The translations under genes were made by a program, and so were the position numbers. A stretch of DNA of 64,000 nucleotides from a virus (lineage: Duplodnaviria; Heunggongvirae; Uroviricota; Caudoviricetes). The stretch lies in IMG/VR virus record IMGVR_UViG_3300003155_000137, positions 46,629 to 110,628 of that record, one strand, 5' to 3'. This document shows positions 8,542 through 63,287 of the stretch, piece by piece (position 1 is the stretch's first letter; each line of letters begins with the position of its first letter). Under the pieces are notes generated by a model, which was not told where the DNA came from, made no database searches, and saw only the letters and a program-made list of their open reading frames with translations.

Positions 8542-9468
8542 ATGGCAACATCAAGCAAGTACGCGGACGCGGCCAAGCGCTATGACGAGCGCACCAAGTT
8601 CTCCGGCGTCTCCGACAAGACGCTCAAGTTCATCACCAACACCAAGAAGGAGCCGAAGATTTACATCCAGCTCCTTTCCGAAGGGCTTCTCGCCGTTCCG
8701 ATGCACAACTTCGTTGAGGTGAAGGGCGGCGACGGCAACACCCACAAGATGTCGTTCGTCTGCCAGTCGCTCATCGACCGCCCCTGCTACATCTGCGACA
8801 ACGGCCTTGCCGTCGACCAGTACAACAAGGACGGCAAGCCCCGCAAGCGCATGGTCGGACTGGCCATCCAGTTCGAGAAGTCCGGCAAGAAGTACACGCC
8901 GATTCGTGAGGACATCGTCGTCACGCCGGAGACCGGCAAGCGGATCGCCAAGAAGTATCCCGACCTCTCGCCGAAGATCGACGAGGATCGCTACACGTTC
9001 ACCGACATGCCGAAGGTGGGCATTCTCGACACCAACAAGTCCGTCGACGACGGCCTCGCGCTCATCATGACCGAGACCGGTTCCGTGAACGACTGCATCT
9101 TCCTCATCGCAAGGACCGGCGAGGGGCTTCAGACCTCGTACTCGGCCCAGCGTCTGAGCGATTCCCCCATCGACTTCGATGAGGAGGATGACGAGCTCAC
9201 CCAGGAGGTGATGGCCTCCATCGAGATGTCCATGAGCGTCGACGACTACATCGACGCCTACATCTCGGAGGATCGTCTCAAGTCCGCGTTCGGGCTTGAC
9301 TCCGACGGCCCGTCCAAGAGCCGCCGTTCGTCGGATCGTGATGACGAGGATGAGGACGTCGATGACGAGGACGTCGATCCTGACGACGATGACGACGACG
9401 ATGACGACGTCGACATGGATGCGATGTTCGCCAAGTCGTACCGTCGCGGACGTCGTCACGATTCATGA
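8542..9468 (+). CDS. Putative gp32-like ssDNA-binding protein (zinc site plus acidic C-terminal tail)
   Basis: H-x5-C-x8-C-x2-C (HKMSFVCQSLIDRPCYIC) resembles the T4 gp32 zinc site. The C-terminus has a (D/E)-rich tail, DDEDEDVDDEDVDPDDDDDDDDDVD. Confidence 0.35.
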   Translation: MATSSKYADAAKRYDERTKFSGVSDKTLKFITNTKKEPKIYIQLLSEGLLAVPMHNFVEVKGGDGNTHKMSFVCQSLIDRPCYICDNGLAVDQYNKDGKPRKRMVGLAIQFEKSGKKYTPIREDIVVTPETGKRIAKKYPDLSPKIDEDRYTFTDMPKVGILDTNKSVDDGLALIMTETGSVNDCIFLIARTGEGLQTSYSAQRLSDSPIDFDEEDDELTQEVMASIEMSMSVDDYIDAYISEDRLKSAFGLDSDGPSKSRRSSDRDDEDEDVDDEDVDPDDDDDDDDDVDMDAMFAKSYRRGRRHDS

Positions 9469-9507
9469 ACGGAATCGTGGGCTAGGTTCTCATTCATGTA
9501 GATAAAC

Positions 9508-9533
9508 GGGCCGGTCATGGTGGTGGCCGGCCC
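9508..9533 (+). terminator. GC hairpin GGGCCGG-N11-CCGGCCC after the SSB-like gene
   Basis: Inverted repeat read directly; there is no U-tract, which is common in actinobacterial terminators. Confidence 0.3.
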
Positions 9534-9566
9534 CATTCGCCATCAGCTTTCGGAAGGAGAAACGCC

Positions 9567-10856
9567 TTGGCTACGGCTCTTGACAAGATAAAGGCCAAAT
9601 TGCAGGGCAGGTACGGCGATCTGTCGGTGATGACGCCGAGCGACATGGTGGACAAGGGTGTCGTCAGCTCCGGCTCACTCGCCATCGATTACATGGTCAG
9701 CTCCAAGCGCGGATTCGGAATACCGCGCAACATCGTCGTCGAGATCGGCGGCAAGCCCGGATGCGGAAAATCCACACTCGCCATGAACATCATCTCCAAC
9801 GTCCTCGACTTGGAGTTCGAGCGCGCCAAGATGTACGTCCGCCTTGAGAAGTCCGTGAAGACGGGCGCGGCGTCAGCCGACGACATGGAGCGGTTCAAGG
9901 CGGCTTGGGACAGGCAGTCGGACGACCTCCATGTATTCGACGACGACTCGACCAACATGCTGCTTGATGAGGTTGAACTGTCCGATTCGGAGATCGACCA
10001 CGCCATCGACGACGTCATGAGGAACGCGCTTTACTGCGATATCGAGGGCAGATTCGACCAGCATTGGGCCGCGAACTTCATCGACCACAGATGGCTTGAG
10101 CGCAAGTTGCTCGTGACGTGGCCCGACACCATCGAGAACGCGACGACGATGTATGTTGACGCGCTTCGCACCGGAACGTTCGCCGTCGCGGTCATTGACT
10201 CCATCGGCGGTGCCCCGACCGTCAAGACGTTCGACAAGGAGGCGGAGAAGGCGTCGGTCGGCGGCAACGCGGTGGGTGTGACGGCGTTCGCCAAGTATGC
10301 CCAGAACATGTCGAACAAGTTCACCTGCCTTACCATCGGACTCCAGCAGGTTCGCGCCGACATGGAGGGCTTCAGGCGCTACATCACTCCTGGTGGCGAG
10401 GGGTGGAAGCACGCATGCTCGTTGCGTATCGAGCTTCGTCGCTCGAACAAGGAGGTCGTCTACGACGATGACCCCGGCGCTCCCGAGACCCAGGTCGTAT
10501 GCGGTTTCAAGGTCCATGCTCGTCTTCACAAGAACTCGGTTGGTCTTTCCGGCAGGGAGGTCGCCCCGTGGTTCTACACCATGCCCTGCAAGTACGGAGA
10601 CCCCGGATTCGACAGGTTGCAGGACGTCGTGAATCTGGCGACGCTGTCCGGTGTGCTGGAGAAGGGGGCGTCTGGGACCTACCGCAGCGACATCCTCCCC
10701 GATGGAAGGATTCGCGGCTACGACCGACTCATCCAGTACCTCCGTGACAACGAGGACGTGTACAACTCGCTCCGTTCCCAGATGGAGGACAGGTTGCTTC
10801 ACGGTGGCGTGGAGGGGTACGTCTCGACGTTCGACGATTCCGAGCTCGATGATTAG
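9567..10856 (+). CDS. RecA/UvsX-like recombinase
   Basis: SGSLAIDYMV...GIPRNIVVEIGGKPGCGKSTLAMN matches the RecA N-terminal core and Walker A. Confidence 0.6.
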   Translation: MATALDKIKAKLQGRYGDLSVMTPSDMVDKGVVSSGSLAIDYMVSSKRGFGIPRNIVVEIGGKPGCGKSTLAMNIISNVLDLEFERAKMYVRLEKSVKTGAASADDMERFKAAWDRQSDDLHVFDDDSTNMLLDEVELSDSEIDHAIDDVMRNALYCDIEGRFDQHWAANFIDHRWLERKLLVTWPDTIENATTMYVDALRTGTFAVAVIDSIGGAPTVKTFDKEAEKASVGGNAVGVTAFAKYAQNMSNKFTCLTIGLQQVRADMEGFRRYITPGGEGWKHACSLRIELRRSNKEVVYDDDPGAPETQVVCGFKVHARLHKNSVGLSGREVAPWFYTMPCKYGDPGFDRLQDVVNLATLSGVLEKGASGTYRSDILPDGRIRGYDRLIQYLRDNEDVYNSLRSQMEDRLLHGGVEGYVSTFDDSELDD

Positions 10857-14037: not shown

Positions 14038-15323
14038 CACTGGACGGAAAGGGGTGGACATTGAGACAGTCAGACCTTGAGGGCAAGGCCGTCGCCCTGC
14101 TCACCGATGTGGATTCGCTGTCGAAGCTCTATTCCCTGGGTCTGAGGGGTGTGCACTTCCAGCGCCTCGAAACCAAGGAGGCATTCGAGTTCGCAGTCGA
14201 CTATTGGCGGCAGTCCGGATTCAGGGCGGCACCGACGGTGGAGGCCATCGAGTCGAAGGTCAAGAGCATCGTCGTCGGTGAGCCGGACGAATCGGCGGCA
14301 TACGTCGCGCAGGAGATGAAGAGGGCGTACACGTCCCGTCTGGCCTCTTCGGCCATACTGGATGCGACGGACACCATGAAGGACGACCCCGTCGGTACGG
14401 TGCAACGGCTGTCCGATACGCTGTGGGGCATCAAGAGGAGGACGCGGGAGCGCCGCAACCAGTCGAACATGATCGACTCCATAGACGACCGCCGCAGAAG
14501 ATACGCCGAAAGGGCGAAGGCGGCCGAGGACGGAGTCATAGGAGAATCGCTCGGATTCGATGAGGTGGACGACCTGACGGGTGGAATCAGACCGGGCGAG
14601 CTCGTTACGTTGGTCGCAGGGCCGAAGGTCGGCAAGACCTGGATGATGCTTCAGGTGGCGAGGAAATGCATCGAAAGGGGTCACACATGCATTGTCTTCA
14701 CGCTTGAGATGGATGTCCCGCAGATCGAGGACAGGTTCGACGCCGTGCTGTCAGGGGTGTCCTACGCCCGCCTTGACGGTGGAAAGCTGTCGACCAAGGA
14801 GATGCGGACGTTGATGGACACGCAGGAGCGTGAATCGGAGCTTGGCTCCATCAGGTTCATCAAGTTGGAGATCGGTGAGAGGACCGTCGAGAACATGGTG
14901 AGGATAGCCAAGGACGAGCGGGCCGACCTCGTCATCATAGATCAGTTGAGCTTCATCGAGACGGCGAAGCAGTACGTCTCAAGGGCGGATCAGGTGTCCA
15001 ACATCATCCTTGAACTCAAGGCGTCCATATCGCAGGACGAAGACGACATGATTCCGGTGCTGCTTCTTGCCCAGTTCAATCGCGCAGGAGCGTCGGCCGG
15101 CGACAAGGCGGACATCAGCTCGATCGGTCTGTCGTCAGAGGTGGAGAGAACGTCGGATGCCCTGATATCCTTGTCCCAGACGGACGAGGAGCGCGCCAAC
15201 AACGTCCTCAAGATGATAATCCTCGCATCGCGCCGTTACGACCTCGGAAGGTTCCTCATCCACAGGGAGCTGGTCGACAGGACGGACATCTCGATGGTTC
15301 GCAGACTGGACGGCGACGAATGA
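14034..15323 (+). CDS. dnaB: DnaB-family replicative helicase
   Basis: Walker A GPKVGKTW, Walker B LVIIDQLSF, and a RecA-like C-terminal domain. Confidence 0.7.
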   Translation: MTLDGKGWTLRQSDLEGKAVALLTDVDSLSKLYSLGLRGVHFQRLETKEAFEFAVDYWRQSGFRAAPTVEAIESKVKSIVVGEPDESAAYVAQEMKRAYTSRLASSAILDATDTMKDDPVGTVQRLSDTLWGIKRRTRERRNQSNMIDSIDDRRRRYAERAKAAEDGVIGESLGFDEVDDLTGGIRPGELVTLVAGPKVGKTWMMLQVARKCIERGHTCIVFTLEMDVPQIEDRFDAVLSGVSYARLDGGKLSTKEMRTLMDTQERESELGSIRFIKLEIGERTVENMVRIAKDERADLVIIDQLSFIETAKQYVSRADQVSNIILELKASISQDEDDMIPVLLLAQFNRAGASAGDKADISSIGLSSEVERTSDALISLSQTDEERANNVLKMIILASRRYDLGRFLIHRELVDRTDISMVRRLDGDE

Positions 15324-15496
15324 CGCCGACCACCGCCGTTCAGCTCATCAGGAAGTACAGGCCCGATTCCAGCATCAGGCAGATGGGGAAGGGCGGTGCG
15401 TGTCTGGCATACGGTCCTGTTTTGTCAGACACGTTACACTGTTGTCTTGTTGAGGGGTATAATCGTGTTCATGAAATGTATGAAGTGCGGAGCTGA
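15320..15496 (+). pseudogene. Duplicated remnant of the primase 5' end (MTPTTAVQLIRKYRPDSSIRQMG...) that then diverges
   Basis: The ATG overlaps the dnaB stop (ATGA). The first ~22 codons parallel the start of the primase copy at 16403. Confidence 0.35.
15434..15463 (+). promoter_or_regulatory. Candidate promoter for the homing endonuclease: perfect TATAAT at 15458-15463, with TTACAC 18 nt upstream
   Basis: An AT-rich TATAAT hexamer in a GC-rich genome, immediately 5' of the ATG at 15471. Confidence 0.3.
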
Positions 15497-16406
15497 GGTT
15501 TTAGCCGGAGATGCGGTTGCGCATGCAAAGTCTCATGGGATTGCGGTCTGTTGTTTCTGCGGAAGACCGTCAAAGAACTCAAGTGGAGGTTCCCTCCACG
15601 TAAGGCTTTCACATGTATTGTCTGACAAGGAGCGCTCTGAACGCATGCTTCCGACAAGAACCGAAACTGCGAAACGCAAGAAGTCGGAATCGCTAAAGAA
15701 ATCTTGGAGCAATCCGGAAGTTTATAGGAGGCGGTGCGAATCGCAGAATCGACCAGAGACGAGCAGGAAAAAGTCAGAAGCCAACAAGATAAGCCACAAC
15801 ACAAAAGAGTTTAAAGAACGCCAACACAATGCTTTGGTTGAGGCGTTTGCACGCCCAGAAGTTAAAAAGCATATGTCCGAAAGGCAACAGTGCAAGATTG
15901 GTACGCCGGCTTACCTAAAGCGTCAAAGGACACTGAACTCTGAAGAGTACAGGGAAAGGTGCTCGCAGAGATTGAAGAATCGGTGGCTGTTATATAGCGA
16001 CTCCAGAAAATACGAATCTGTTCAGGGCATGATTGAAGCTGGCGGTAGTGGACACAAGCGCACCATTCGGAACAAGAGGGGCTCCTCTGTCAAGTGTGAT
16101 TCCGATATGGAGTATGAGTATTGCAAGTTGCTTATGGCTGACGACGATGTCGTTGACTTTGATAGGTTTGCTGGTGTCATCCACCTGATAGGGATGGATC
16201 GGGTCTATATTCCAGATTTTGTTGTTAATCGACGAAGCGGAGTCAGGGAACTTATAGAGGTTAAGTCAAGCTGGACAGCGAAGTTCCCTACGTTTCCATT
16301 CAAAGTCGAGGCGGCAATCGCTTGGTGCGAAGAGCACTCAATGACTTACAAGATTGTTCGAGAGTCAGATATGTGTGAGTACGAAAGGAGGTTGTTGAGC
16401 CAGTGA
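15471..16406 (+). CDS. Free-standing homing endonuclease (C2H2-like zinc fingers + NUMOD-like repeats + PD-(D/E)xK nuclease), copy 2
   Basis: MKCMKCGAEV start; repeated x-K-K-S-W-x-x-P-E motifs; C-terminal YIPDFVV...IEVK. Confidence 0.6.
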   Translation: MKCMKCGAEVLAGDAVAHAKSHGIAVCCFCGRPSKNSSGGSLHVRLSHVLSDKERSERMLPTRTETAKRKKSESLKKSWSNPEVYRRRCESQNRPETSRKKSEANKISHNTKEFKERQHNALVEAFARPEVKKHMSERQQCKIGTPAYLKRQRTLNSEEYRERCSQRLKNRWLLYSDSRKYESVQGMIEAGGSGHKRTIRNKRGSSVKCDSDMEYEYCKLLMADDDVVDFDRFAGVIHLIGMDRVYIPDFVVNRRSGVRELIEVKSSWTAKFPTFPFKVEAAIAWCEEHSMTYKIVRESDMCEYERRLLSQ

Positions 16407-17377
16407 GTCCCACGACAGCGTTGCAATTGGTCAGGAAGTATCGCCCTGAATCGAAGGTTCGCCAGATGGGCGACTGGCTTTAGCAACTCACGCATTCCTG
16501 CATCATCGACCGCGTCCACCCTCATCATGCACACGGTGATGCGAACGGCTCGGCGGGAATCAACGTGGAGACCGGGGCCTACCACTGCTTCGTATGGTCG
16601 GACCGCAGCATCCCGTTCAAGGACCTCTGTCGGCTTCTCGGAGGCGATTACGAGTTCATGCCGCAGGGCTCCGAGGTTCCGGAGGATTCCGACCTGAGAG
16701 CCGAGGTGGAGCGACGCCTCCATGCCGACGAACGGACTCCGGGTCCGTACAACCTTGGCGCATACGACCCCGATCCGCCCGAGTACATGCATTCGGGCCG
16801 CCATCTATCGTGGGAGGTGCTGAGGAGGGCCGGCATCATGTATGACCAGATAACGGACCGTGTCCTCATACCGATATGGCAGGCGTCCATCGATGGCGAC
16901 AGGAGGCTCGTGGGACTCCAGCGCAGGGTGATTCCCGGCTCAAGCTCGGAGCGCCGTTATCCCAAGTACGACAACTCGAACGACATGAGGAAATCGGAGG
17001 TGCTCTACGCAATAGAGCCTCTGGACCTGCACAGGCCGCTTCTGGTGGTCGAGTCGGTGATGTCGGTTCTCAGGGCGTGGGATTACGGGTTCAGGAACTG
17101 CGTCGCGGCTATGGGGAGCCACCTGTCCAGGGCGCAACTTGATTTCATCAGGATGTTCGACGACGTAGTCCTGTGGTTCGACGGGGACGAGTCCGGAATA
17201 CGCGGAACCGCCGACGCCATACGCAAGCTCGTGGGGGTCAACCTGCTCATCGTATGCCCGAAGGACTCCCGCGACATAGACGACCTTCCGAAGCGGACGT
17301 CGATGAGGCTCATGGCTTCGGCCGTGACCCCGGTCGAATGGCTGGCGGGACATTCCGACAATCAAGTCCGAGGCTAA
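16403..17377 (+). CDS. dnaG: DnaG-like primase (N-terminal peptide, degenerate zinc-binding region and TOPRIM) with an in-frame TAG at 16481-16483
   Basis: The GTG overlaps the HEG stop (GTGA). The zinc-binding region is CIIDRVHPHH...YHCF and the TOPRIM motifs are VVES...FDGDESG. In the same frame the reading runs ...VRQMGDWL*QLTHSC... Confidence 0.5.
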
Positions 17378-21592: not shown

Positions 21593-22609
21593 ATGCCAAG
21601 CCGTGGAACAAAGGGGCTTCTTGCGGGCCTGACCCCGGAGATGCTGCTTGACGTCGAGCAGGAGTCCAAGGGGATACCGTTCGAGCCGATGGAGTTCTTC
21701 GAGTCCGACAGGTACTGCGGCATGAACCTGTATCCGATGCAGCGCCTTCTCCTGAAGATCATCAATCTCTACGAGGACTATACCGACCGTGAGAACCAGC
21801 TCATCGACCAATGGACGTCGACGTACTGTGATCGTGGATACCGTGTCGGCATCGTATCCGACGTCCGTGAGCGCATCCGCATTCTCAGGAGGAATGGGTA
21901 CAAGGCGTTCAACCAGATCATCCTGATACTTGGTCGAAGGGCATCCAAGACCACGCTGTGCGGTGCCCAATGGGCGCTTCATGACGCCCAACTCCTTTCC
22001 GAGGGGATTCCGAGGGTTTCCGACACCAGCAAACAGGATGACATCACCTACGGCATAGCGATGGCGACGACCGCCCAGCAGGCGCAGGAGTCGATCTTCG
22101 CAAGCTATTACCGGACGGTGGCGAATTGCCCTTGGTTCTCCAAGTACATCAAGCGAGTAACCCCGTTCGAGATCACCTACCAGACGCTTGAGGACAAGCT
22201 CAAGACGGTGGATATGATCGAGTCCGGAATCAACGTCGAACGCGAGCCGGTGAGCATGGTGTGCCGCCCCATCAGCTCCAACTCCGATTCCATCAGAGGT
22301 CGTCCTGTTGTTGACTTCTGCCTTGGCGAGGATTCCCTTGTCCGCATGTCTGACGGATCGGTAATGCGAATCGCCGACTTGTCCGTCGGAGACCACGTTT
22401 CCGCATTCAATGAGAATAATCCGAGTGTCCCCGAAGACGCAGAGGTGCTGGCGGTACATCATCTCAGGAAGCCGACGAAGCGTATATGGTTCGATGATGG
22501 AACATATATTGACGCGACCGACGAACACAGGTTCGTCAATGGTGATGGCGACTGGGTGGAGGTCAGGGACATGAGGCCCGGAGACACGATAATGGAGGGT
22601 GGTGAGTGA
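21593..22609 (+). CDS. Terminase large subunit N-terminal part (Walker A ATPase) fused to an intein N-terminal half
   Basis: TerL-type Walker A LGRRASKTT; the extein ends ...RPVVDF. Hint-N runs from C at 22319 (CLGEDSLV block A, ATDEH block B) to the stop at 22607-22609. Confidence 0.55.
   Translation: MPSRGTKGLLAGLTPEMLLDVEQESKGIPFEPMEFFESDRYCGMNLYPMQRLLLKIINLYEDYTDRENQLIDQWTSTYCDRGYRVGIVSDVRERIRILRRNGYKAFNQIILILGRRASKTTLCGAQWALHDAQLLSEGIPRVSDTSKQDDITYGIAMATTAQQAQESIFASYYRTVANCPWFSKYIKRVTPFEITYQTLEDKLKTVDMIESGINVEREPVSMVCRPISSNSDSIRGRPVVDFCLGEDSLVRMSDGSVMRIADLSVGDHVSAFNENNPSVPEDAEVLAVHHLRKPTKRIWFDDGTYIDATDEHRFVNGDGDWVEVRDMRPGDTIMEGGE
22319..22606 (+). other. Intein N-terminal half (Hint-N) of a split or fractured intein
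   Basis: Blocks A and B are present and the ORF stops right after Hint-N. Confidence 0.5.
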
Positions 22610-23589
22610 GCGTTTTGTCTGCTACTACGTATCGCGGCGTGAGAGTCGATGAGTCATTGATGCGGTGCCTTGAGTGCGATAGGTCGTTTTCGTCACTGGG
22701 AGGGCTGAGAAGGCATGCCGCCGGGCCTCGGCACAAGAATGGGTCGTCTCAGTGCGATGTGTGCGGAAAGCGATTCGACACACCAACCGGGGCGAGAATG
22801 CACATGCGCGTCCACAACATCGAGCTGAACGAACACGGTGAGCGCTCAGACGGTCCATTCGTGTGTAGCGTTTGCGGTAGAGAGTTCACGTCACTGCGAG
22901 GTCTTGGCAGCCACATCAGATATCATGACCCAAACTATCGCGAGTGGCGTCGTGGACTGCATTTCGGGAGGCAGATGAGCGCAGAGTCGAAAGAAAAGAT
23001 GCGCCAGACTCAGCTCAGGAAGTACAGTGATCCGGAGTTCTCAAAGCGAATGGCGGACTCGAAGAGAACGGTGGCCTCCAGAGCCAGGTACAGCGCCGCC
23101 AGAAGGCGTGTGATTGATGGCTATGATGACCAGCGTCTAATCGACCTGTCAAGGATGGCAATGGGAAATCTCGTGAGAACGATGTCTGGGGATTCCCGTG
23201 GCCATAGGAGCGTCCACCATTCGCAGAAGGCTGGTGACATCCATTGTGATTCCGACCTTGAGCTGAGATTCTGTCGAGACCTGGACGGGTTCGACAACGT
23301 GTTCGCTTATGGCAGATGTGACGACTGTATCGTGTATTCGTTCGATGGCAGGAGACACGTCTACAACCCAGACTTCTGTGTTCAGACCGACGAGGGCACG
23401 GTGATTGTTGAGATCAAGGGTGCAGACTCCGACCAGGTCAGGGCAAAGATGGATGCGGCGGTCGAGTATTATCGCAGATTGGGGCTTGAATATGTCCTCA
23501 TGTTTGAAGGCGATATCGAACGCTGTGAAGAACGTGGAAGATTCATGTATGGAGGAGGTGGTGCAGATGAAGCGGATTGCAAGGATTGA
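22606..23589 (+). CDS. Free-standing homing endonuclease (3 C2H2 fingers + NUMOD-like repeats + PD-(D/E)xK), copy 3, between the intein halves
   Basis: The GTG start overlaps the upstream stop (GTGA) and lies in a different frame from the intein. C2H2 fingers are CLECDRSF..H, CDVCGKRF..H and CSVCGREF..H. The nuclease motif is YNPDFCV...VEIK. Confidence 0.6.
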   Translation: MSVLSATTYRGVRVDESLMRCLECDRSFSSLGGLRRHAAGPRHKNGSSQCDVCGKRFDTPTGARMHMRVHNIELNEHGERSDGPFVCSVCGREFTSLRGLGSHIRYHDPNYREWRRGLHFGRQMSAESKEKMRQTQLRKYSDPEFSKRMADSKRTVASRARYSAARRRVIDGYDDQRLIDLSRMAMGNLVRTMSGDSRGHRSVHHSQKAGDIHCDSDLELRFCRDLDGFDNVFAYGRCDDCIVYSFDGRRHVYNPDFCVQTDEGTVIVEIKGADSDQVRAKMDAAVEYYRRLGLEYVLMFEGDIERCEERGRFMYGGGGADEADCKD

Positions 23590-23680
23590 GAACATCGGTG
23601 ACGCCGACGTCGTTGACATAACGACGAGTACGCACACGTTCATAGCCAATGGACTCAAGACCCACAACTGCTTCGATTAG
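23567..23680 (+). CDS. Intein C-terminal half (Hint-C) followed by only 3 extein residues (CFD) before a stop
   Basis: MKRIARIENIGDADVVDITTSTHTFIANGLKTHN|CFD* carries blocks F and G. Its ATG lies inside the 3' end of the HEG ORF. Confidence 0.5.
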   Translation: MKRIARIENIGDADVVDITTSTHTFIANGLKTHNCFD

Positions 23681-23700
23681 CGGACGAGGCGTTTTTCTCG

Positions 23701-24162
23701 TTGGCTGGAAACTCGTCAAGGTCGGGTGACAGGGCCATATCGGCCATACTGCCGGCCACGCAGACGTTCGGCAAGGACAGGCTTGTCATGTTCCCCTCGT
23801 CTCCGTGGACGAGGTCCGGAAGGGTCTACAGGGCATATCTCCAAGGCGACATGTCCGTGGTCGATGAAATGGACGACGATGAAAAAGAAAATTTGGAATC
23901 GCTGGAGAGGGCTAGGGCCGACGTGCAGTCGGCTATGGCGTCGGACCCGTCGATTCTTGTTGTCCAACTTGAGTCGTGGCGTCTGTACGAAGACTGGAGT
24001 CTGGGTTCGTATGTGCCGACCTATCATTCAGGATGGTCCCCGAAACGACTGACGCTCCAGGACGAATCCGGAAGGGTCATGACCGTCGACGCGGAGACGA
24101 ACGCCGAGGTTGGAGACTTGGTGAATATCGACGACAAGGAGGAAGAGAATGTCGAATCATGA
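23701..24162 (+). CDS. Terminase large subunit C-terminal fragment (Walker B/motif III region), in a different frame from Hint-C
   Basis: An open frame from 23617 reads ...ADEAFFSLAGN...VMFPSSPWT (DE Walker B and S-S-P coupling motif), continuing the RPVVDF extein logic. There is no ATG; TTG lies at 23701. Confidence 0.4.
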   Translation: MAGNSSRSGDRAISAILPATQTFGKDRLVMFPSSPWTRSGRVYRAYLQGDMSVVDEMDDDEKENLESLERARADVQSAMASDPSILVVQLESWRLYEDWSLGSYVPTYHSGWSPKRLTLQDESGRVMTVDAETNAEVGDLVNIDDKEEENVES

Positions 24163-24722: not shown

Positions 24723-25125
24723 CTACTATCTGCGTGAGCGCAAGCCCTACCGTACCGTTGTCACGTATGAGGGCGACCCTATCGACGGCAAGATCCTGAA
24801 CCGCGAGGAGCAGTACCGTGAATGCCATCTCTGCAAGCTGTCGTGGGGATGGCTTCCGCACATGGCGTGCGACCCGATATCCACCATCGGCGTGTCGTTC
24901 CGTTCCCTCAGGTCGATGGTGGAGTATGCGGCCCAGCATCCCGAGATGGCGATAGTCGACGAGTGCGGGGAGGAGCATGCGCTCTCCGAATTTAGCGACA
25001 TGGTGAGGCGATGGGGTCATGATGGCTTCGGATGCCCCAAGGACGCCCCTCCCCACGACCACCTCGGATTGCGCAGCTGGGTGGACGACGAGGGGTTCGA
25101 GTTCTCGGCCGTGGAGTTCTACTAG
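24712..25125 (+). CDS. Hypothetical protein
   Basis: ORF whose stop TAG sits inside the ACTAGAAACGCC repeat. Confidence 0.3.
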   Translation: MGTNYYLRERKPYRTVVTYEGDPIDGKILNREEQYRECHLCKLSWGWLPHMACDPISTIGVSFRSLRSMVEYAAQHPEMAIVDECGEEHALSEFSDMVRRWGHDGFGCPKDAPPHDHLGLRSWVDDEGFEFSAVEFY

Positions 25126-25132
25126 AAACGCC
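25117..25132 (+). repeat. Direct repeat GTTCTACTAGAAACGCC (left copy) flanking the IS remnant
   Basis: It matches 26869-26884, GTTCACTAGAAACGCC (12/12 core identity). A related CTAGAAAGCGC also occurs at 24407. Confidence 0.5.
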
Positions 25133-25387
25133 CTTGAGGCTGTTGACGAGCGATGAGAGTTGGATTGTCGCGGGGAAGGTGACCAGCAGGTGTACGTGGT
25201 CTTCCTCGCCGTTGAACTCATCCAAGGTGCATCCGAATTTCTCGCAGACGTTCCGCATGATGGTTTCGCAGTCTTCGAGGATGGGTTGCGTGAATGCTCC
25301 ACGCCGATATTTTGTCACGAACACCAAATGCGCGTGACAATCCCAAACCGCATGCCTTCCCTTACGTATCTGACCATCGTTTTGCAT
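25133..25387 (-). pseudogene. tnpA: IS200/IS605 TnpA (Y1 HUH transposase), 3'-truncated so the catalytic Tyr region is lost
   Basis: MQNDGQIRKGRHAVWDCHAHLVFVTKYRRGAF...EEDHVHLLVTFPATIQLSSLVNSLKGVSSR, then the junction. The HUH motif is HVHLL. Confidence 0.5.
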
Positions 25388-25396
25388 GACACCAAG

Positions 25397-25402
25397 TATA
25401 AT
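25397..25402 (+). promoter_or_regulatory. TATAAT -10 box upstream of tnpB, in the divergent tnpA/tnpB intergenic region
   Basis: AGTATAATGAG, 25 nt before the ATG, with the RBS TGGAGG. Confidence 0.3.
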
Positions 25403-25426
25403 GAGAGATGTCTGGAGGTGAATTGA

Positions 25427-26689
25427 ATGACACTCGATGAAGTCGGTATCGCCGAACGGAACAAACGCATAGGCGAATCCCGCAAGGTCACGAAGCTGCG
25501 GCGTAAACATCAGGTGTGCCGCGCGTTCACCTGCAAAATCGACTACTGGAAGCTCAAAGCCGAACAGCGGGAAGCCCTGTCCCAATTGTTCTTGGATGCG
25601 AAGCGCCTTTACAACGACTGCGTCACGTCCGAGGACGTGTTCTCCTACACACCTGCCCGCGTCGTGAACGTGAGGATGAAGGACGGGAGCTTCAGGCAAA
25701 GGGAACTCGCCCGTATCGGCGTCCAGACCATGCAGGGCGTCATCCAACAGGCCAAGGACAACATTCGCGGACTGTCCAAGCTCAAGGAGAAAGGGTACAA
25801 GGTCGGCGGACTCAAACCGGTCAAATGCTTCAACAGCATCCCGTTGAAGCAACCCGGACGAACCTACCGGCTGAACGGCAACTACATCCATGTCGAGCGC
25901 ATACCCGGCGTGATGCATCTGACCGGGGTGAAGCAGCTCAAGGGCTGGGAGATAGGTCCGGCGAAACTTCTCCGCAAGGCAAGCGGCTACTATGTCGCGT
26001 TCTCCTGCTTCAAGGACAAAATGGAATACGATGAGGGCAAGACCTACAATCCGCCGCCAGCAATACCCATCGGTGGGGTTGACGCCGGGCTGAAGGATGA
26101 AATCACCGAATCCGACGGAACGAAGACCACACGCCGCTATCCGGACACCACCAAACTCCGCTACTGGCAGCGGCGCATGAGCAAACGCGACAGGAACACC
26201 AACAACTGGCGGGAGGCGAACCGCCAATACCGCAAGGAACAGGACAGGCTCAAGGCGCAACGCAAGCACGCCGCCATAGAGGAGGCGCGCCGGCTGACCG
26301 GCAAATACGCGACACTCGTCATCCAAGACGAGCAAATCCACTCATGGAACAAACGCGAAGGATATGCGCGGGGCGGCAGGAAAATCCATGCCGGAATCCT
26401 CGGACGCCTATACGCGACGCTCAAACAACGACCCAATGTCATCGTCTTGGACAAGTGGCAGCCGACGACATCATGGTGCCGGTATTGCGGACGACGAACA
26501 CCATGCCCGGTAAGTCAACGCACATTCACCTGCATGTACTGCGGCGCACAGGAAGACCGCGACCAGCACGCCGCGCTCAACATGCCGGTACTCCAAGAGC
26601 AGCCACTAACCCACGTAGACCTTCGAAAACCACGGGACATCCCCATCGGGCCATACCTCGGTAACGCGCGTACCCGGAACGCCCGCTGA
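25427..26689 (+). CDS. tnpB: TnpB (OrfB; RuvC-like, RNA-guided nuclease family of IS200/IS605)
   Basis: The C-terminus has a zinc finger (CRYCGRRTPCPVSQRTFTCMYCG), a RuvC-III region and the typical K/R-rich linker. Confidence 0.75.
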   Translation: MTLDEVGIAERNKRIGESRKVTKLRRKHQVCRAFTCKIDYWKLKAEQREALSQLFLDAKRLYNDCVTSEDVFSYTPARVVNVRMKDGSFRQRELARIGVQTMQGVIQQAKDNIRGLSKLKEKGYKVGGLKPVKCFNSIPLKQPGRTYRLNGNYIHVERIPGVMHLTGVKQLKGWEIGPAKLLRKASGYYVAFSCFKDKMEYDEGKTYNPPPAIPIGGVDAGLKDEITESDGTKTTRRYPDTTKLRYWQRRMSKRDRNTNNWREANRQYRKEQDRLKAQRKHAAIEEARRLTGKYATLVIQDEQIHSWNKREGYARGGRKIHAGILGRLYATLKQRPNVIVLDKWQPTTSWCRYCGRRTPCPVSQRTFTCMYCGAQEDRDQHAALNMPVLQEQPLTHVDLRKPRDIPIGPYLGNARTRNAR

Positions 26690-32742: not shown

Positions 32743-32748
32743 TATAAT
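32743..32748 (+). promoter_or_regulatory. TATAAT -10 box upstream of the second tnpB
   Basis: GATATAATTGG, 24 nt before the ATG at 32772, with the RBS TGGAGG. Confidence 0.3.
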
Positions 32749-32771
32749 TGGTTTGTTATTGGAGGTTTGTC

Positions 32772-33992
32772 ATGGCTGAGCTGACGTTGACGATGCGCGC
32801 CCGTCTGCTGCCCACACCGGAGCAGCAGACGCGGCTCGCCGCATTGTGTTCGACGTTCGCCGACTGCTGCAACGACGTGGCCGACCACATCGACAAAACC
32901 CGGACGCTCAGCCAGAAGAAAATCAACAAGGCCATCTACCACCAGTTGCGCGAAGCGCACGGGCTGCTCGCCCAGATGACCCAATCCGCGATACGCCGGG
33001 TCATCGCCAACTACAAGGCCATCCACACGCGCATCAACAATCTCCGCGAGGAAAACAAGAACGGTGAGACGCGGGGAGGCAAGAAGCGGAAGATACCCGA
33101 GTATTACGGGATAAAGCCCCAGTACGCGCCCAACGGGTGCGACCTGCTGTGGAACCGCGACTACTCATACTCCCAACGGACCGAAATGTTCAGCCTCCCC
33201 GTCATGGACGGGCGCATCAAGGTGAAGGCCGAATGGAAAAACGTCCCCGACCAATACCGGCTGGGAAGGTTCGGCACAGCCCGTCTCATCCGCAGCCGCG
33301 ATAAATGGTATCTGCTCATCCCCGTTACCATCCAGACGCCGGACGTGACGGAACACCCCAAGACCATCGTCGGCGTGGACTTGGGCATACGATTCCTCGC
33401 CACCTCCTATGACGGCGAACACACCACATTCCACGACGGGAAGGAGGTGAAACACCGTCGCGGCAGATACAAGACTCTTCGCAAGGAATTGCAGCAGCGG
33501 GGCACGCGCAGCGCGAGGAAACGTCTCAAAGCCATCGGTAGTCGAGAAAACCGTTGGATGACCGATGTCAACCATCAGGTGTCTAAGGCACTCGTCAACC
33601 AGTACGGCAGGGACACGCTCTTCGCGCTCGAAGACCTCGAAGGAATCCGCAACGCCACCGAAAGGGTGAGGATGCGGCAGCGCTACGTGCAGGTGTCTTG
33701 GGCGTTCAGCCAGCTCCGTTCGTTCATCGGATACAAGGCGGCACGCAACGGTCAGGCCACGGTCGCGGTCGATCCCGCGTACACCAGCCAGACCTGCCCA
33801 CGATGCGGGCACGTGTCCGCAGGAAACAGGGACAAGCGGAACCACATCTTCATCTGCCGCAACTGCGGCTACCGGTCGAACGACGACCGGATAGGCGCAA
33901 TGAACCTGCGTCACAAAGGCTACGACCTGATCGTGATGCAGTACGACGCCAACATGATTGACGTCGCAGGGGTGCAGCCAACCATCCCGTGA
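32772..33992 (+). CDS. tnpB: TnpB (second copy, solo; no tnpA detected)
   Basis: The C-terminal CPRCGH...CRNCGY zinc finger and RuvC-like motifs are present. It is only distantly related to copy 1. Confidence 0.7.
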   Translation: MAELTLTMRARLLPTPEQQTRLAALCSTFADCCNDVADHIDKTRTLSQKKINKAIYHQLREAHGLLAQMTQSAIRRVIANYKAIHTRINNLREENKNGETRGGKKRKIPEYYGIKPQYAPNGCDLLWNRDYSYSQRTEMFSLPVMDGRIKVKAEWKNVPDQYRLGRFGTARLIRSRDKWYLLIPVTIQTPDVTEHPKTIVGVDLGIRFLATSYDGEHTTFHDGKEVKHRRGRYKTLRKELQQRGTRSARKRLKAIGSRENRWMTDVNHQVSKALVNQYGRDTLFALEDLEGIRNATERVRMRQRYVQVSWAFSQLRSFIGYKAARNGQATVAVDPAYTSQTCPRCGHVSAGNRDKRNHIFICRNCGYRSNDDRIGAMNLRHKGYDLIVMQYDANMIDVAGVQPTIP

Positions 33993-56651: not shown

Positions 56652-56774
56652 ATGGCCATAGGCGACCCTTGGAACAACAACGGAACGAAGAACGGTGCGA
56701 TGCAGGTGTTCATACCTTCGTCGGCACCCATCATCTCGTCCATATCGATAGACTCGCTCATGAGCCATTTCTAG
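56652..56774 (+). CDS. Small ORF (40 aa), paralogue B
   Basis: MAIGDPWNNNGTKNGAMQVF...; about 85% nucleotide identity to 56304-56380. Confidence 0.25.
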   Translation: MAIGDPWNNNGTKNGAMQVFIPSSAPIISSISIDSLMSHF

Positions 56775-56837
56775 CCGCCGTTCGACGACCTCGTATTCGA
56801 CAAGTCGGACTCGTCGCATATCAGGCATCTCGTCGAA

Positions 56838-58055
56838 GTGCTGTGCGGCGAGTCCGGCATCGGACAGATACTCGCATGGTCGGTCAGGGACTGGCTCAAC
56901 GGCGGCGTCTACACTGCATGGCTCGGATTCGTGGACAGGCTCTTCGCCAGCATCTACGGACTCCCGAGGATATACGAGGAGACCACGAAGTTCAACCCAT
57001 CCGACGGTGCCCTCACCATCGAGGAGGTGAACGAGGCCCTCGTCAAGGAGAGTTGGTACAAGGAGCGGTTCGTCCTGCTCATGAAGGCCCTGTGCTCCGG
57101 AGGAACGGTGAGAGGGTTCAGGTTCGCGTGCCAGTCCATCTGCTTCTGCGACTGCGACATCTACGAGACGTGGAGATACAAGAAGCAGGACTTCCAGGTC
57201 GGAAGGATGGGCTACACCCTCTACAACGAGGTCGTGATATGCCCGTACTCCAAGGGCGTGACGGAGCGGCAGAAGGAGCTTCTGCTCAGGGTGCTCGACA
57301 GGCTCAAGCCGGCCGACGTCATCGTCACCATCGACATGAACGGCCTTGAGGCGTTCACCCACAGGTCGATGAGGGCCGTCACCGCCTCGTCCACATACTT
57401 CGAGATACAGCGCACCGTCATGAACACGGTGGACAACTCCAAGCTCCCTCCGGCCTCGGAGATATTCACGGACGGTCAGGCATACGGGTATGACGCCTAC
57501 CTCCGGCTCGACACGGGCGAGACGACCGAGGTCAGGAAGGCGATCCAGAACAGGACGCAGGAGTACACCGAGTACTACGTGTCCGACAAGAGCTCCACCG
57601 CGCAGGTCGCCGACGTGACGTACACCATAGAGAACGCCAACGACGAGGTCGTTTCCGAGGAGGACTGGACTGAGCGCGAGTCCACGGTGAGATGGAGCTC
57701 GTGGGTGAGGTTCACCATCGTAGACGCCCCCGACAACTATCCCGGAGGGAAGTACGGCAGGACGCCGATGCGCGCCCCTGCGGTGAACCGCGACGGAACG
57801 GACTACATCTTCCCATACGAGTCGCAGGATGCGTATGAGAGGATGAAGGGGGCGCAGGTCATAGCGGACGGCGGAGAGGTCATGGGACACCATTACAGGG
57901 TCAGGCTGTCGGTGTCGACCACGACGACGCGGTACACCCCGGACATGTCGTTGGTCACGGTGAACGACGCATCGAACAACATGCAGGTGCTCCCGGAGGT
58001 CGAACCGAAGGAATTAAACGCATACAGCCGCGTCACGCTTCGGAACATGCAGTAG
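56838..58055 (+). CDS. Hypothetical protein, 405 aa (GTG start)
   Basis: 405-aa ORF in the late region; no motif-based assignment. Confidence 0.3.
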   Translation: MLCGESGIGQILAWSVRDWLNGGVYTAWLGFVDRLFASIYGLPRIYEETTKFNPSDGALTIEEVNEALVKESWYKERFVLLMKALCSGGTVRGFRFACQSICFCDCDIYETWRYKKQDFQVGRMGYTLYNEVVICPYSKGVTERQKELLLRVLDRLKPADVIVTIDMNGLEAFTHRSMRAVTASSTYFEIQRTVMNTVDNSKLPPASEIFTDGQAYGYDAYLRLDTGETTEVRKAIQNRTQEYTEYYVSDKSSTAQVADVTYTIENANDEVVSEEDWTERESTVRWSSWVRFTIVDAPDNYPGGKYGRTPMRAPAVNRDGTDYIFPYESQDAYERMKGAQVIADGGEVMGHHYRVRLSVSTTTTRYTPDMSLVTVNDASNNMQVLPEVEPKELNAYSRVTLRNMQ

Positions 58056-62928: not shown

Positions 62929-62939
62929 TCGGAGGAACG

Positions 62940-63287
62940 ATGTTCGAGTGCGATGAGTGCGGAAGGACGTTCCGCTCCGAGAGGGGGCTGAAGTCCCACA
63001 TGAGGACGCATGCCGATGAAACCGATGCTGCGTCCGCGCATGCCGTGGAACCGGCCCCGGAGGACGGGTTGAAGGACGCGGAGGGCGATTCGACGTCCGA
63101 CGAGAACACCGGAAATGCGTCCGAGGGCGACGTGCCGAAGGTCGATGGATTCCACGGGGCGATGTGGCGGGCCACCATGACGAGGAGGGGTGTGACCATC
63201 ACCCCGACCTCCGAATCCCATACCGGGAAGGCCGCGCCCGCCGACCCCAGGGTCATCCTCCGAAGGCTTGACACCGGAGGCATCTGA
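62940..63287 (+). CDS. Stand-alone C2H2 zinc-finger protein (its finger resembles the homing-endonuclease N-termini)
   Basis: MFECDECGRTFRSERGLKSHMRTH followed by an acidic linker. Confidence 0.35.
   Translation: MFECDECGRTFRSERGLKSHMRTHADETDAASAHAVEPAPEDGLKDAEGDSTSDENTGNASEGDVPKVDGFHGAMWRATMTRRGVTITPTSESHTGKAAPADPRVILRRLDTGGI

Follow-up and report, generated by a model that had tools for sequence, protein, structure and literature searches.

A gene for a TerL-type packaging ATPase in a large gut phage was found to be broken up by a split intein, a homing endonuclease gene (HEG) and an 8-nt insert that carries a stop codon. Comparative analysis suggested, with a probability of about 0.6, that this split gene was invaded by a mobile cassette and is expressed in pieces through a ribosomal stop-hop and protein trans-splicing. 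The analysis covered a stretch of 64,000 nt (the window), in which the anatomy of the gene, the persistence of its parts and the constraint on them, the exact collinearity of the hop product and two like inserts in the genome were observed. An earlier note on this DNA had left three alternatives, namely trans-splicing plus a recoding event, gene decay, and a 1-nt sequencing error near the frame break; the evidence from sequence favours the first.

Anatomy of the Split ATPase Gene

The gene and its cassette consisted of the following parts.

21593..22318, + strand: N-extein, comprising residues 1-242 of the packaging ATPase of TerL type, with Walker A LGRRASKT and the end ...RGRPVVDF
22319..22609, + strand: Hint-N half (Cys1 CLGEDSLV ... 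TDEH ... MEGGE) and TGA stop; Cys1 at 22319-22321, stop at 22607-22609
22606..23589, + strand: free-standing HEG with three C2H2 zinc fingers and a PD-(D/E)xK (TnsA-like) nuclease, assigned by Pfam, PHROG and paralogs
23551..23558, + strand: Shine-Dalgarno GGAGGAGG, read from the sequence, 8 nt upstream of the ATG of Hint-C, within the HEG 3' end
23567..23668, + strand: Hint-C half of 34 aa, MKRIARIENIGDADVVDITTSTHTFIANGLKTHN, unchanged in 10 contigs
23669..23677, + strand: TGC TTC GAT, the three codons that open the C-extein; Cys+1 serves as splice nucleophile and GAT is the proposed take-off codon
23678..23682, + strand: proposed coding gap TAG CG, which with the preceding GAT makes the 8-nt insert missing in uninterrupted alleles
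23683..23685, + strand: proposed landing codon GAC at the Walker B Asp position, from the sequence and comparison with intact alleles
23686..24162, + strand: rest of the C-extein (EAFFSLAGNSS ... FPSSPWTR ...), 158 aa and stop

The N-half ORF (21593-22609) encoded 338 aa, comprising 242 aa of a P-loop ATPase and then Hint-N. The earlier note had described this ATPase ORF as running into a complete Hint-N and stopping at 22607, and the ORF, CLGEDSLV and TDEH were all found in place. Its 37-codon Hint-C ORF (23567-23680) was likewise present in the sequence and reads MKRIARIENIGDADVVDITTSTHTFIANGLKTHN|CFD*, the half ending in ...THN|C. The C-extein DEAFF...FPSSPW... occupied a third frame, open from 23617 without an ATG as that note had stated, and no ATG, GTG or TTG start was present in this frame before the TTG at 23701.

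When the two Hint halves were fused, they matched the Pfam profile Intein_splicing (E 2.6e-8, 34.3 bits, just below the gathering score of 35.8), in agreement with the Hint blocks proposed earlier. The fused halves also aligned end to end with a contiguous mini-intein in the homolog P0034 (39% identity, E 8e-31), which has the same insertion site as the split intein of the window.

The HEG product matched zf-C2H2 (1.9e-12) and Tn7_TnsA-like_N (3e-4) in Pfam and belonged with PHROG endonuclease families, and its PD...ExK motif was invariant among paralogs. The HEG ORF lay in a different frame from the N-half, and its 3' end overlapped the Hint-C start (ATG 23567) by 23 nt. The gene is free-standing and in another frame, as first described, but the start then placed on the overlapping GTGA is less likely than TTG 22615, which is probably the conserved start, because 1 nt is deleted at 22614 in contig L001, where the gene was called from the equivalent TTG. 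The central account of a 'fractured gene', with a split intein, an intervening free-standing HEG and an extra frame break, was supported by the sequence.

The two ORFs of the split gene, taken together, were collinear with intact homologs: 242 aa, CF and 159 aa add up to 403 aa, which is the length of P0001 (97% identity). The RG-(8 aa)-DE spacing of Walker B was kept in 37 of 38 homologs, with identities as low as 35%. The ATPase showed a TerL-type ASCE P-loop fold and carried Walker A, the Walker B DE and the coupling motif. The label 'TerL' fits in fold and motifs but covers the ATPase half only; the 403-aa protein has ~110 residues after the ATPase and the C-terminal RNase H-like nuclease domain is absent from it. 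Terminases of cluster C mycobacteriophages and Gordonia phages (e.g., ScoobyDoobyDoo gp242) shared 30-31% identity over ~82% of the 403-aa protein, and gp242 had the same RG-8-DE spacing; however, gp242, at 763 aa, extends into a long C-terminal part, whereas the window protein ends ~110 aa past the ATPase. The C-terminal ~400 aa of gp242 had no match within the window by tblastn.

The carrier of the split ATPase gene is an actinobacterial myophage of ~135-140 kb. A 138,987-nt contig bears the label 'uncultured Bifidobacterium sp.' in its NCBI entry. Several TnpB/IS elements were located in the same phage.

An 8-nt Insert Separates Hint-C from Most of the C-Extein

Intact 403-aa alleles read TTC GAC GAG, whereas the window reads TTC GAT TAG CG GAC GAG. 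This insert of 8 nt, GATTAGCG (GAT TAG CG), places the C-extein in the -1 frame relative to Hint-C; the two do not form one continuous ORF, a stop standing directly after CFD. The extra frame break that had been noticed ahead of most of the C-extein is therefore real and consists of this insertion. After the stop, GAC is the first codon in the sequence cognate for tRNA-Asp.

The junction TGCTTC GAT TAG CG GAC GAG was the same in 10 contigs, which represent at least 9 samples. These contigs came from SPAdes-style (NODE_) ENA and Logan assemblies of several samples and studies, with coverage up to 66x, and four of the 10 had been chosen through the N-half protein alone. Because the fractured arrangement recurs in 10 contigs, it is neither a chance product nor an assembly artefact.

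Two Further UAG-Led Inserts in the Window

Two other genes of the window contained inserts of the same kind.

15320..15391, + strand: remnant of primase codons 1-24 (original copy), upstream of a second HEG cassette
15396..16406, + strand: free-standing HEG of the same family as the TerL HEG, between dnaB and primase
16403..17377, + strand: primase with a cassette-borne, diverged 5' end; insert TGG CTT(16478) TAG CAA CTC(16487) ACG
56652..58055, + strand: DUF7297 gene; insert CAT TTC(56769) TAG CCG CCG TTC(56781) GAC

In the primase, hopping from CUU to CUC would restore ...WLTHSC, as in the uninterrupted 321-aa allele (TGG CTC ACG), and a hop from UUC to UUC in DUF7297 would restore ...SLMSHFDDLVF, as in uninterrupted 463-aa alleles. 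The primase insert was identical in 4 contigs and the DUF7297 insert in 11. The 19 codons past the DUF7297 landing codon lacked a start codon, with a Pfam profile match from residue 1, and the landing-codon variant TTT (UUU) of contig L033 still encoded Phe and was cognate. The window primase site, CUU UAG CAA CUC, is close to what is reportedly the classic synthetic stop-hop construct, CUU UAG CUA.

At all three sites UAG stood directly 3' of the take-off codon and was followed by C; this +4 C was found at 3/3 of the recoding UAGs vs 0/8 genuine TAG stops of long plus-strand ORFs. Each take-off and landing pair was readable by one tRNA (GAU/GAC in TerL, CUU/CUC in primase, UUC/UUC in DUF7297), and the gaps measured 5, 6, and 9 nt, respectively. 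With gaps of at most 10 nt, collinear hop products and junctions that are invariant and to which a frameshift would add residues, the sites have the features of short bypasses. The TerL and primase inserts lay 9 and 6 nt downstream of the junction between HEG cassette and target and were present only with the cassette (10/10 and 4/4 cassette-bearing contigs); none of the cassette-free TerL and primase alleles examined had an insert. The DUF7297 site had no adjoining HEG.

It is about an even call whether this lineage carries a family of mini stop-hop cassettes, 8-12 nt of the form codon-UAG-C...-same codon, that sit in essential genes and would each be obligatorily bypassed by peptidyl-tRNA hopping. 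These would be the first natural stop-hops, and at least two of them would act as self-immunity devices within the mobile cassettes of a C2H2/PD-(D/E)xK HEG family that had not been described before. The TerL one would be stacked on the split intein, so that a functional ATPase would require both the ribosome hop and trans-splicing.

Proposed Route of Expression

We infer the following route, including the ribosome hop and its efficiency, the trans-splicing and the role in self-immunity. The N-half (N-extein and Hint-N) would be translated in the ordinary way, and the zinc-finger/PD-(D/E)xK endonuclease would be made from its own ORF. The C-half would begin at ATG 23567, behind the strong Shine-Dalgarno in the endonuclease gene, and continue through Hint-C to Cys-Phe-Asp. 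With UAG-C in the A site, peptidyl-tRNA(Asp) would unpair from GAU, where it forms a G.U wobble pair, and re-pair with the Watson-Crick GAC 8 nt downstream; UAGCG would be skipped and translation would restart at GAG. The predicted C-half product is Hint-C-CFDEAFFSLAG... (...HN|CFDEAFF), and trans-splicing with the N-half would give a 403-aa ATPase with an intact Walker B strand (RG-8 residues-DE), the expected spliced peptide across the junction being GRPVVDFCFDEAFFSLAGNSSR. The 8-nt insert would belong to the mobile cassette and would probably break the endonuclease recognition sequence on the cassette-bearing genome, by analogy with T4 gene 60/MobA.

Several points weigh against the hop. 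The synthetic stop-hops made by Weiss et al. in 1987 are said to work poorly, at around 1% in E. coli, and a low efficiency would be costly since the interrupted genes are essential. Hint-C-CFD peptide released by termination would compete for the N-half, with N-extein-CFD as a dead-end product. No signal that would stimulate the hop was found: the RNA fold around the insert was not significant (z -1.5 to -1.75), the lone polymorphism in its predicted outer stem (23706) disrupts one pair, and no SD-like element lay 5' of the TerL landing codon. All ten TerL junctions were identical, which leaves no variation in the take-off/landing pair at this site to assess for covariation. Some DNA-level insertion process might, in principle, have left the matched flanking triplets as imperfect 3-bp duplications of its target.

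Other Explanations for the Interrupted Genes

Recoding of another type appears unlikely. It would take the form of a -1 shift near UUC GAU UAG, giving CFDLADEAFF with three extra residues, or of UAG readthrough at the two in-frame sites, adding 3-4 residues. The frame of DEAFF suits such a shift, being -1 relative to Hint-C, and relatives with inteins elsewhere carry LAYDE at the same position, which loosely resembles LADE. However, tRNA-Asp and tRNA-Phe are unable to re-pair at -1, no frameshift-compatible re-pairing at -1 or +2 was read from the sequence near the insert, and 11 residues would result between RG and DE vs 8 in 37/38 homologs. The TerL break held no slippery heptamer X XXY YYZ. 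Programmed -1 frameshifting was rejected on the non-slippery C UUC GAU and the non-significant downstream hairpin.

As two of the three inserts are in frame, readthrough would also yield full-length proteins there, but it leaves unexplained the matched flanking codons at three sites and the absence of the block from intact alleles. A suppressor tRNA was absent from the window, whose tRNAs were Ala, Thr, and Gly only, and TAG is a normal stop here, ending 8 of 63 long plus-strand ORFs and serving as the terminator of DUF7297 itself. Reassignment of TAG was rejected as well, the TAGs lying inside insertions, one of them out of frame, while TAG still terminates and the window has no suppressor tRNA.

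It is also improbable that the interrupted genes are damaged alleles on selfish elements, in genomes that persist by endonuclease-driven super-Mendelian spread with complementation by co-infecting intact phages, or as non-packaging host residents. Intact versions of all three genes co-circulate and are the majority for TerL and primase, the phage has its several TnpB/IS elements, and cassettes of the MobA type are regarded as mildly deleterious (bioRxiv 10.1101/2022.08.31.505936). Such damage would nevertheless mean that three essential genes of the window genome are dead simultaneously, and the 10 diverged genomes had accumulated no further lesions. For DUF7297 the insert allele was the majority: the 40-aa upstream ORF occurred in 46+10 contigs, and 405-aa forms were found in dozens vs few 463-aa forms. 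Its post-landing stretch, which has no start codon, showed 8 synonymous and 0 nonsynonymous changes among the 11 insert-bearing contigs.

Decay of the ATPase gene, one of the alternatives raised earlier, conflicts with the purifying selection that insert-bearing genomes showed in the N-extein, Hint-N, HEG and C-extein. The pN/pS values were 0.047 for the N-extein, 0.25 for Hint-N (7 intein-bearing genomes), and 0.14 for the HEG; for the C-extein the value was 0.12 in the DEAFF frame vs 1.7-1.9 in the other two frames. The extein variation among intein-bearing genomes could be partly imported from intact alleles by recombination. Hint-N, which occurs only in intein-bearing genomes and is under purifying selection, would have no role unless splicing to a real C-extein matters. 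This constraint and the unchanged Hint-C speak indirectly for trans-splicing.

Removal of the gaps before translation, by RNA-level excision and re-ligation or by a polymerase jump between short repeats, seems very unlikely. It would also account for the exact collinearity and the matched triplets (as junction microhomology), but it offers no reason for gaps that always open with a stop codon of the upstream frame, nor for the UAG-C context. We know of no bacterial or phage route for removing 5-9 nt from mRNA, and Rfam matches in the window were tRNAs only.

A sequencing or assembly error, possible a priori only, with an unrelated 1-nt deletion in Hint-N of the low-coverage contig L004 (4x), has, as far as assemblies can tell, a negligible chance: the difference is 8 nt and no homopolymer indel, the junction is the same in 10 contigs across samples and assemblers up to 66x, and the analogous inserts are identical in 4 and 11 contigs. 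The GTTTTTC run pointed out earlier is irrelevant as a slippery site, since it sits downstream of the stop.

Comparison with Known Systems

One close parallel is T4 gene 60/MobA, where a bypass insert shields the cassette from its own endonuclease, according to Manning & Atkins (bioRxiv 10.1101/2022.08.31.505936, citing Bonocora et al. 2011). In both systems a free-standing endonuclease splits an essential gene, a non-coding insert lies just downstream of the cassette junction, and UAG directly after the take-off codon opens an insert that is followed by a matched landing codon. The primase site, with its diverged cassette-borne copy of the target flank, resembles T4 homR. The gap is 5-9 nt in the window vs 50 nt in T4 gene 60, and the window sites are without a T4-type take-off stem-loop, a gap Shine-Dalgarno or a recognisable nascent-peptide signal. 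The HEG family is unrelated to T4 MobA, and the halves would be rejoined by a split intein, in contrast to the CTE/NTE tails of T4.

In synthetic stop-hops of E. coli (Weiss et al. 1987), as a review relates, a stop has a matched codon on either side and the peptidyl-tRNA re-pairs a few nt downstream, ~9 nt being decoded as one amino acid (PMC5009743). Those constructs were engineered and of low efficiency, whereas the window sites are natural; no natural in-frame stop-hop was known to this 2016 review (PMC5009743). In mitochondria of Magnusiomyces capitatus, many short inserts (byps) in conserved genes are bypassed with matched take-off and landing codons (Lang et al. 2014, as cited by PMC10732093 and PMC5009743). 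Unlike the window inserts, the byps are 27-55 nt long, GC-rich, structured, mitochondrial and without an endonuclease link.

The Streptomyces actinophage phiHau3 also has short inserts in a large-terminase gene. These inserts of 7-10 nt fall at conserved motifs of the ATPase, namely at the P-loop and just before Walker B, and bypass was inferred because a frameshift would add residues at an invariant junction (Smith et al. 2013; Antonov et al. 2023; PMC10732093). The slow codon of phiHau3 is a rare UUA sense codon, proposed to sense host physiology, in place of the UAG-C of the window; a stop codon can stand in for it in E. coli, with mass-spectrometry support (PMC10732093). The phiHau3 terminase has neither intein nor endonuclease, unlike that of the window.

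Very few natural systems are known to use bypassing: T4 gene 60 with its relatives, the mitochondria of Magnusiomyces and, as a candidate, phiHau3. If the stop-hop reading is true, one phage genome would hold three minimal hop sites, and for each of them an intact allele would act as an internal control. They would provide a far simpler model of take-off and landing, with no 50-nt gap, no obvious RNA structure and UAG-C as the sole shared signal, and a second, independent tie between bypass inserts and HEG self-immunity. The TerL gene would also show how far an essential gene can be fragmented by endonuclease, split intein and coding gap and still survive under selfish elements. Gene callers yield 37-40-aa stubs and N-terminally truncated proteins at such sites, as the NCBI and metagenome pipelines did here, and similar sites have probably been overlooked or written off as pseudogenes.

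The fractured-gene layout is of a known kind; natural stop-hops, and the combination of such a hop with a split intein, would be new. In fractured genes, as in the window, the host gene is cut at a conserved catalytic site, and an endonuclease ORF lies between the resulting N-extein-IntN and IntC-C-extein ORFs, its 3' end overlapping the IntC start; this overlap was 6-69 bp in 15 loci, in a phage context and with terminase among the hosts (Dassa et al. 2009; PMC2677866), and 23 nt in the window. The endonucleases of those loci are GIY-YIG or Vsr-like, whereas the window HEG combines C2H2 zinc fingers with a canonical PD-(D/E)xK/TnsA-like domain. The short split intein, and possibly this zinc-finger/PD-(D/E)xK nuclease family if it proves programmable, may serve as parts for tool building. 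The C-half of the window is discontinuous, with a stop and the 8-nt gap three codons past the splice junction, unlike the genes of Dassa et al. The same protein family includes a clean fractured gene, that of the relative L008/L015 (45% identity), whose Hint-C and C-extein form one ORF.

Organization of the TerL locus

The window was phage-like, with a G+C content of about 58%, nearly all genes on the + strand and 3 tRNAs. The genes identified encoded DNA polymerase III alpha, a RecA-like protein, DnaB, primase, baseplate J, tail sheath and a GH25/LysM lysin. The large terminase subunit (TerL) locus at 21593-24162 had the ORFs and frames described in the earlier note (a slash marks the splice junction):

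21593-22609, + strand: N-half ORF, 242 P-loop ATPase residues ending ...SIRGRPVVDF, then CLGEDSLV...TDEH...MEGGE and a stop
22606-23589, + strand: ORF of a C2H2 + PD-(D/E)xK (TnsA-like) putative homing endonuclease, between the split-intein halves and in a different frame from the N-half
23551-23558, + strand: GGAGGAGG, preceding the Hint-C ORF
23567-23680, + strand: Hint-C ORF, encoding MKRIARIENIGDADVVDITTSTHTFIANGLKTHN/CFD, then a TAG stop
23617-24162, + strand: open C-extein frame, DEAFFSLAGNSS...FPSSPWTR..., first start codon TTG at 23701

The C-extein frame lacked an ATG, as had been noted, and contained no ATG, GTG or TTG before 23701. The reading as a split intein with an intervening endonuclease was upheld: the Hint halves, the endonuclease and the Hint-C overlap matched the fractured-gene type, and this assignment is made with high confidence. 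Split inteins in fractured genes have been described before, in one case in a phage terminase, and the TerL locus shares the layout of Dassa et al., down to the characteristic overlap between the 3' end of the endonuclease gene and the beginning of Hint-C (PMC2677866).

Identity of TerL, the intein and the endonuclease

Many uninterrupted homologs of the host protein were found (400-441 aa), and the closest (P0001-P0003; 403-406 aa) shared 95-97% identity with the concatenated exteins. The nearest cultured homologs were 'terminase' genes of cluster C mycobacteriophages and Gordonia phages (~30% identity). These terminases had ~760 aa, and the window protein corresponded to the ATPase half alone; no nuclease half was detectable in the window. 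A PDB sequence search with the family profile gave no match.

When fused in silico, the Hint halves aligned end to end with the contiguous mini-intein of homolog P0034 at the same insertion site (39% identity, E 8e-31) and matched Pfam Intein_splicing with an E of 2.6e-8 (34.3 bits; gathering score 35.8). The endonuclease of the TerL locus combined three C2H2 zinc fingers with a PD-(D/E)xK nuclease domain that matched Pfam Tn7_TnsA-like_N. Its motif S..E...YNPDF.V...IEVK...K.EAA was invariant across the endonuclease paralogs of the window and one distant phage. We know of no description of this zinc-finger and nuclease combination as a homing endonuclease. The related features of the window were as follows:

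15396-16406 and 60098-61060: C2H2 + PD-(D/E)xK (TnsA-like) putative homing endonucleases, free-standing between genes
~2380-2900, inside ORF 493-5244: C2H2 + PD-(D/E)xK (TnsA-like) putative homing endonuclease, nested in the DNA polymerase III alpha intein
62889-63287: zinc-finger-only ORF, 3' of the sheath gene

The DNA polymerase III alpha gene (493-5244, 1583 aa) carried a contiguous intein at about residues 461-832 (Intein_splicing E 5.7e-14), with the TnsA-like endonuclease domain nested in it. A relative with 45% identity (contigs L008/L015) had an unbroken version of the fractured gene, with an endonuclease of the same family, an N-half of 372 aa and a C-half of 197 aa reading ...THN/CKLAYDEVFF in one frame. 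Inteins of the terminase family occupied three insertion points in one 8-residue RG...DE segment (window and P0034; P0033; L008). Intein-free relatives (P0015-P0021, 50-72% identity) read ...VFCFDE..., with Cys exactly at the +1 position of the intein; this residue may be a precise intein-loss scar or a pre-adapted homing site.

An 8-nt insert at the TerL junction

Intein-free alleles read GAC TAC GTG TTC GAC GAG (contigs L009 and L024) or GAT GAG (L023), and the window read ...GAC TTC, intein, TGC TTC GAT TAG CG GAC GAG, that is, 8 extra nt. Relative to the intein-free target ...GTGGACTACGTGTTCGACGAGGCG..., the addition was GATTAGCG. The junction was identical in 10 contigs from at least 9 samples, with coverage up to 66x; 4 of the 10 were found through the N-half protein only and were thus unselected for the stop. 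The source samples included ERZ13616446, ERZ13617434 and SRR30977708. The 1-nt sequencing error suggested earlier was rejected on these grounds, the difference being 8 nt and identical in all 10 contigs. One low-coverage contig (L004, 4x) had a 1-nt deletion near the Hint-N end (~22554 equivalent; P0061, 326 aa), probably an assembly error.

Among the junction-bearing genomes the locus varied at 192 of ~2,580 positions, and the longest invariant run (159 nt, 23548-23705) coincided exactly with Hint-C, the junction and the 23 nt that open the C-extein. The longer invariant stretch 23548-23783 was only partly valid as evidence for a recoding signal, since the part after ~23710 was equally conserved in intein-free alleles and was not cassette-specific; only the 159-nt run was. 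At 23707-23783, in the ~100 nt of C-extein that directly follow Walker B (AACTCGTCAAGG...GGCAAGGAC), synonymous sites were almost invariant in intein-bearing and intein-free alleles.

Nothing was found by megablast against phage GenBank records, by a JGI metagenome scan with P0001 or by a GTDB genome scan for the junction. A search with Hint-C and 11 extein residues matched just a cluster of stop-ended 37-43-aa ORFs; no Hint-C-C-extein fusion turned up, which is not strong evidence because the word index is weak for such short queries. tblastn detected no second Hint-C or C-extein copy in the window.

Selection on the TerL pieces

Mean pN/pS among 7 full-length intein-bearing genomes
N-extein: 0.047
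Hint-N: 0.25
Endonuclease: 0.14
C-extein, DEAFF frame: 0.12
C-extein, remaining two frames: 1.7-1.9

Gene decay, which the earlier note had raised, was rejected: the N-extein, Hint-N, endonuclease and C-extein were under purifying selection (pN/pS 0.047-0.25), although recombination with intact alleles could have imported some of the extein variation. The ratios indicate that the interrupted TerL gene is maintained by selection. Hint-N was constrained, occurred only in cassette-bearing genomes and would be purposeless without splicing to a real C-extein, which speaks for a Hint-C-C-extein fusion being produced.

Proposed reading across the TerL gap

In 37 of the 38 homologs, whose identity reached as low as 35%, exactly 8 residues separated RG from the DE of Walker B, and the sum 242 + 2 + 159 residues gave 403, the length of P0001. 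The sequence ...VVDF-CF-DEAFF is the only product that preserves the invariant architecture of the family. In the insert, the take-off codon GAU is followed by the stop UAG, CG and GAC, which is the first cognate triplet downstream; GAU and GAC are both decoded by tRNA-Asp. A stop-hop, in which the peptidyl-tRNA re-pairs from GAU to the matched landing codon GAC and skips the UAG-led gap, would resume at GAG and give CFDEAFF. The C-half precursor would then be LK/THNCFDEAFFSLAGNSSR, and trans-splicing would yield a 403-aa product with the tryptic peptide GRPVVDFCFDEAFFSLAGNSSR. The stop-hop is the best-supported explanation, with a probability of roughly 60%. The earlier proposal of trans-splicing plus recoding would hold with a hop as the favored recoding event, and the frame break is an insert of 8 nt, not 1 nt.

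Several points weaken the stop-hop: the efficiency of known stop-hops is low; Hint-C-CFD released by termination would tie up the N-half, with N-extein-CFD as a possible dead-end product; the 10 identical junctions leave no covariation between take-off and landing codons; and no stimulatory element was detected. Folds of the junction RNA were not significant as a stimulatory structure, and a polymorphism disrupted the outer stem. A -1 frameshift was disfavored, as the junction had no slippery site, a motif raised in the earlier note, and no re-pairing option; its product CFDLADEAFF would contain 3 added residues and break the RG-8-DE spacing. Separate initiation of the C-extein was rejected, because a start at 23701 forfeits the invariant catalytic Glu and F249. 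Reassignment of TAG was also rejected, since TAG terminates here and reassignment could not account for the out-of-frame TerL site.

Inserts in the primase and DUF7297 genes

The endonuclease at 15396-16406 lay between dnaB and primase. Codons 1-24 of the original primase persisted as a remnant (15320-15391), and the cassette supplied a diverged duplicate of the primase 5' end from GTG 16403, replacing the old one. This new end read ...CAG ATG GGC GAC TGG CTT TAG CAA CTC ACG CAT TCC TGC, with the in-frame CTT TAG CAA CTC insert at 16478-16489 (added sequence CTTTAGCAA), identical in 3 further contigs. The cassette-free primase read ...TGG CTC ACG CAT TCC TGC, and this uninterrupted allele (contig L001, protein P0103) had neither insert nor cassette. 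A CUU to CUC hop would restore ...WLTHSC..., leading into the primase zinc-binding motif; the next start without a hop was GTG 16565, within that motif. A TATAAT box within the primase-side cassette, 7 nt 5' of ATG 15471 (MKCMKCG...; 15440-15475), suggests that this cassette carries its own promoter and a leaderless transcript.

The DUF7297 gene (56652-58055) read ...ATG AGC CAT TTC TAG CCG CCG TTC GAC GAC CTC... (insert 56769-56783). The 40 codons 5' of the insert and the downstream sequence were homologous to one continuous protein, and the homologs read SLLAHFDTYVYD (P0079, 63% identical) and SLMSHFDDLVFD (P0088 and P0094, 463 aa, >90% identical) at this junction. A UUC to UUC hop would give ...SHFDDLVF...; the Pfam DUF7297 match (E 5e-78) began at the first residue past the landing codon, and the 19 codons after the landing codon contained no start codon. 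Across 11 insert-bearing contigs all 8 changes in these 19 codons were synonymous, whereas 4 synonymous changes and 1 nonsynonymous change were seen in the 40-codon ORF upstream; the sole landing-codon change (TTC to TTT) stayed cognate. The insert allele was the commoner one in the population, with the 40-aa stub ORF in more than 50 contigs. In gene-caller and NCBI annotations the gene appears as a truncated 405-aa protein (WP_288923548.1).

Stop codon usage and chance

The 63 long + strand ORFs ended in TGA (48), TAG (8) or TAA (7), and the genuine TAG ends showed that TAG is an ordinary stop in this genome. C followed UAG at 3/3 recoding sites vs 0/8 genuine TAG ends, where T, A or G was present (Fisher p ~0.006, our own calculation). 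For an arbitrary insert, the chance that the pre-stop codon matches the collinearity-restoring codon is ~1/32 per site; with three independent sites, coincidence is thus very unlikely. A generic scan for a codon, a stop and the codon again was too noisy alone (the minus strand, where almost no genes lie, gave 111 TGA and 10 TAG hits), and only candidates with an uninterrupted allele were retained. The hit at 10851 (GAT TAG TA GAC) was rejected as the true end of the RecA-like gene, the following gene having its own SD and ATG.

Relation to homing endonucleases and known systems

In the downstream direction, the TerL insert came 9 nt after the point of intein insertion, and the primase insert 6 nt after the end of homology to the old gene copy. 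Neither insert occurred without the endonuclease cassette. Bypassing is an established property of T4 gene 60. In T4, 20 bases separate the bypass insert from the site nicked by MobA, and the insert, rather than flanking polymorphisms, blocks MobA cutting of cassette-bearing DNA (bioRxiv 10.1101/2022.08.31.505936). Because the TerL and primase inserts have the same geometry relative to their cassettes, we infer by analogy that they would be self-immunity devices of the cassettes, tolerated since ribosomes are able to skip them by hopping. No endonuclease lay next to the DUF7297 site, which may represent a 'hit and run' remnant.

In the terminase of Streptomyces phage phiHau3, bypass of 10-nt inserts has mass-spectrometry support, and these likewise occupy the P-loop and the position immediately preceding Walker B (PMC10732093). 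Stop-hops with matched codons around the stop have been described for synthetic constructs only, and a 2016 review knows no natural cases (PMC5009743). Natural, repeated UAG-C-led gaps of just 5-9 nt in one genome, their link to a zinc-finger/PD-(D/E)xK endonuclease family and a putative hop stacked on a split intein are apparently new.

Other mobile elements were also present. In contig L001, an IS607-type element (serine recombinase and TnpB, 8599-10376) lay at the extreme 3' end of the terminase C-extein, and its insertion had altered the last residues (...KELSLEH). The window carried IS200/IS605-type elements at 24992-26689 (minus-strand tnpA-like gene and 420-aa TnpB) and 32748-33992 (414-aa TnpB).
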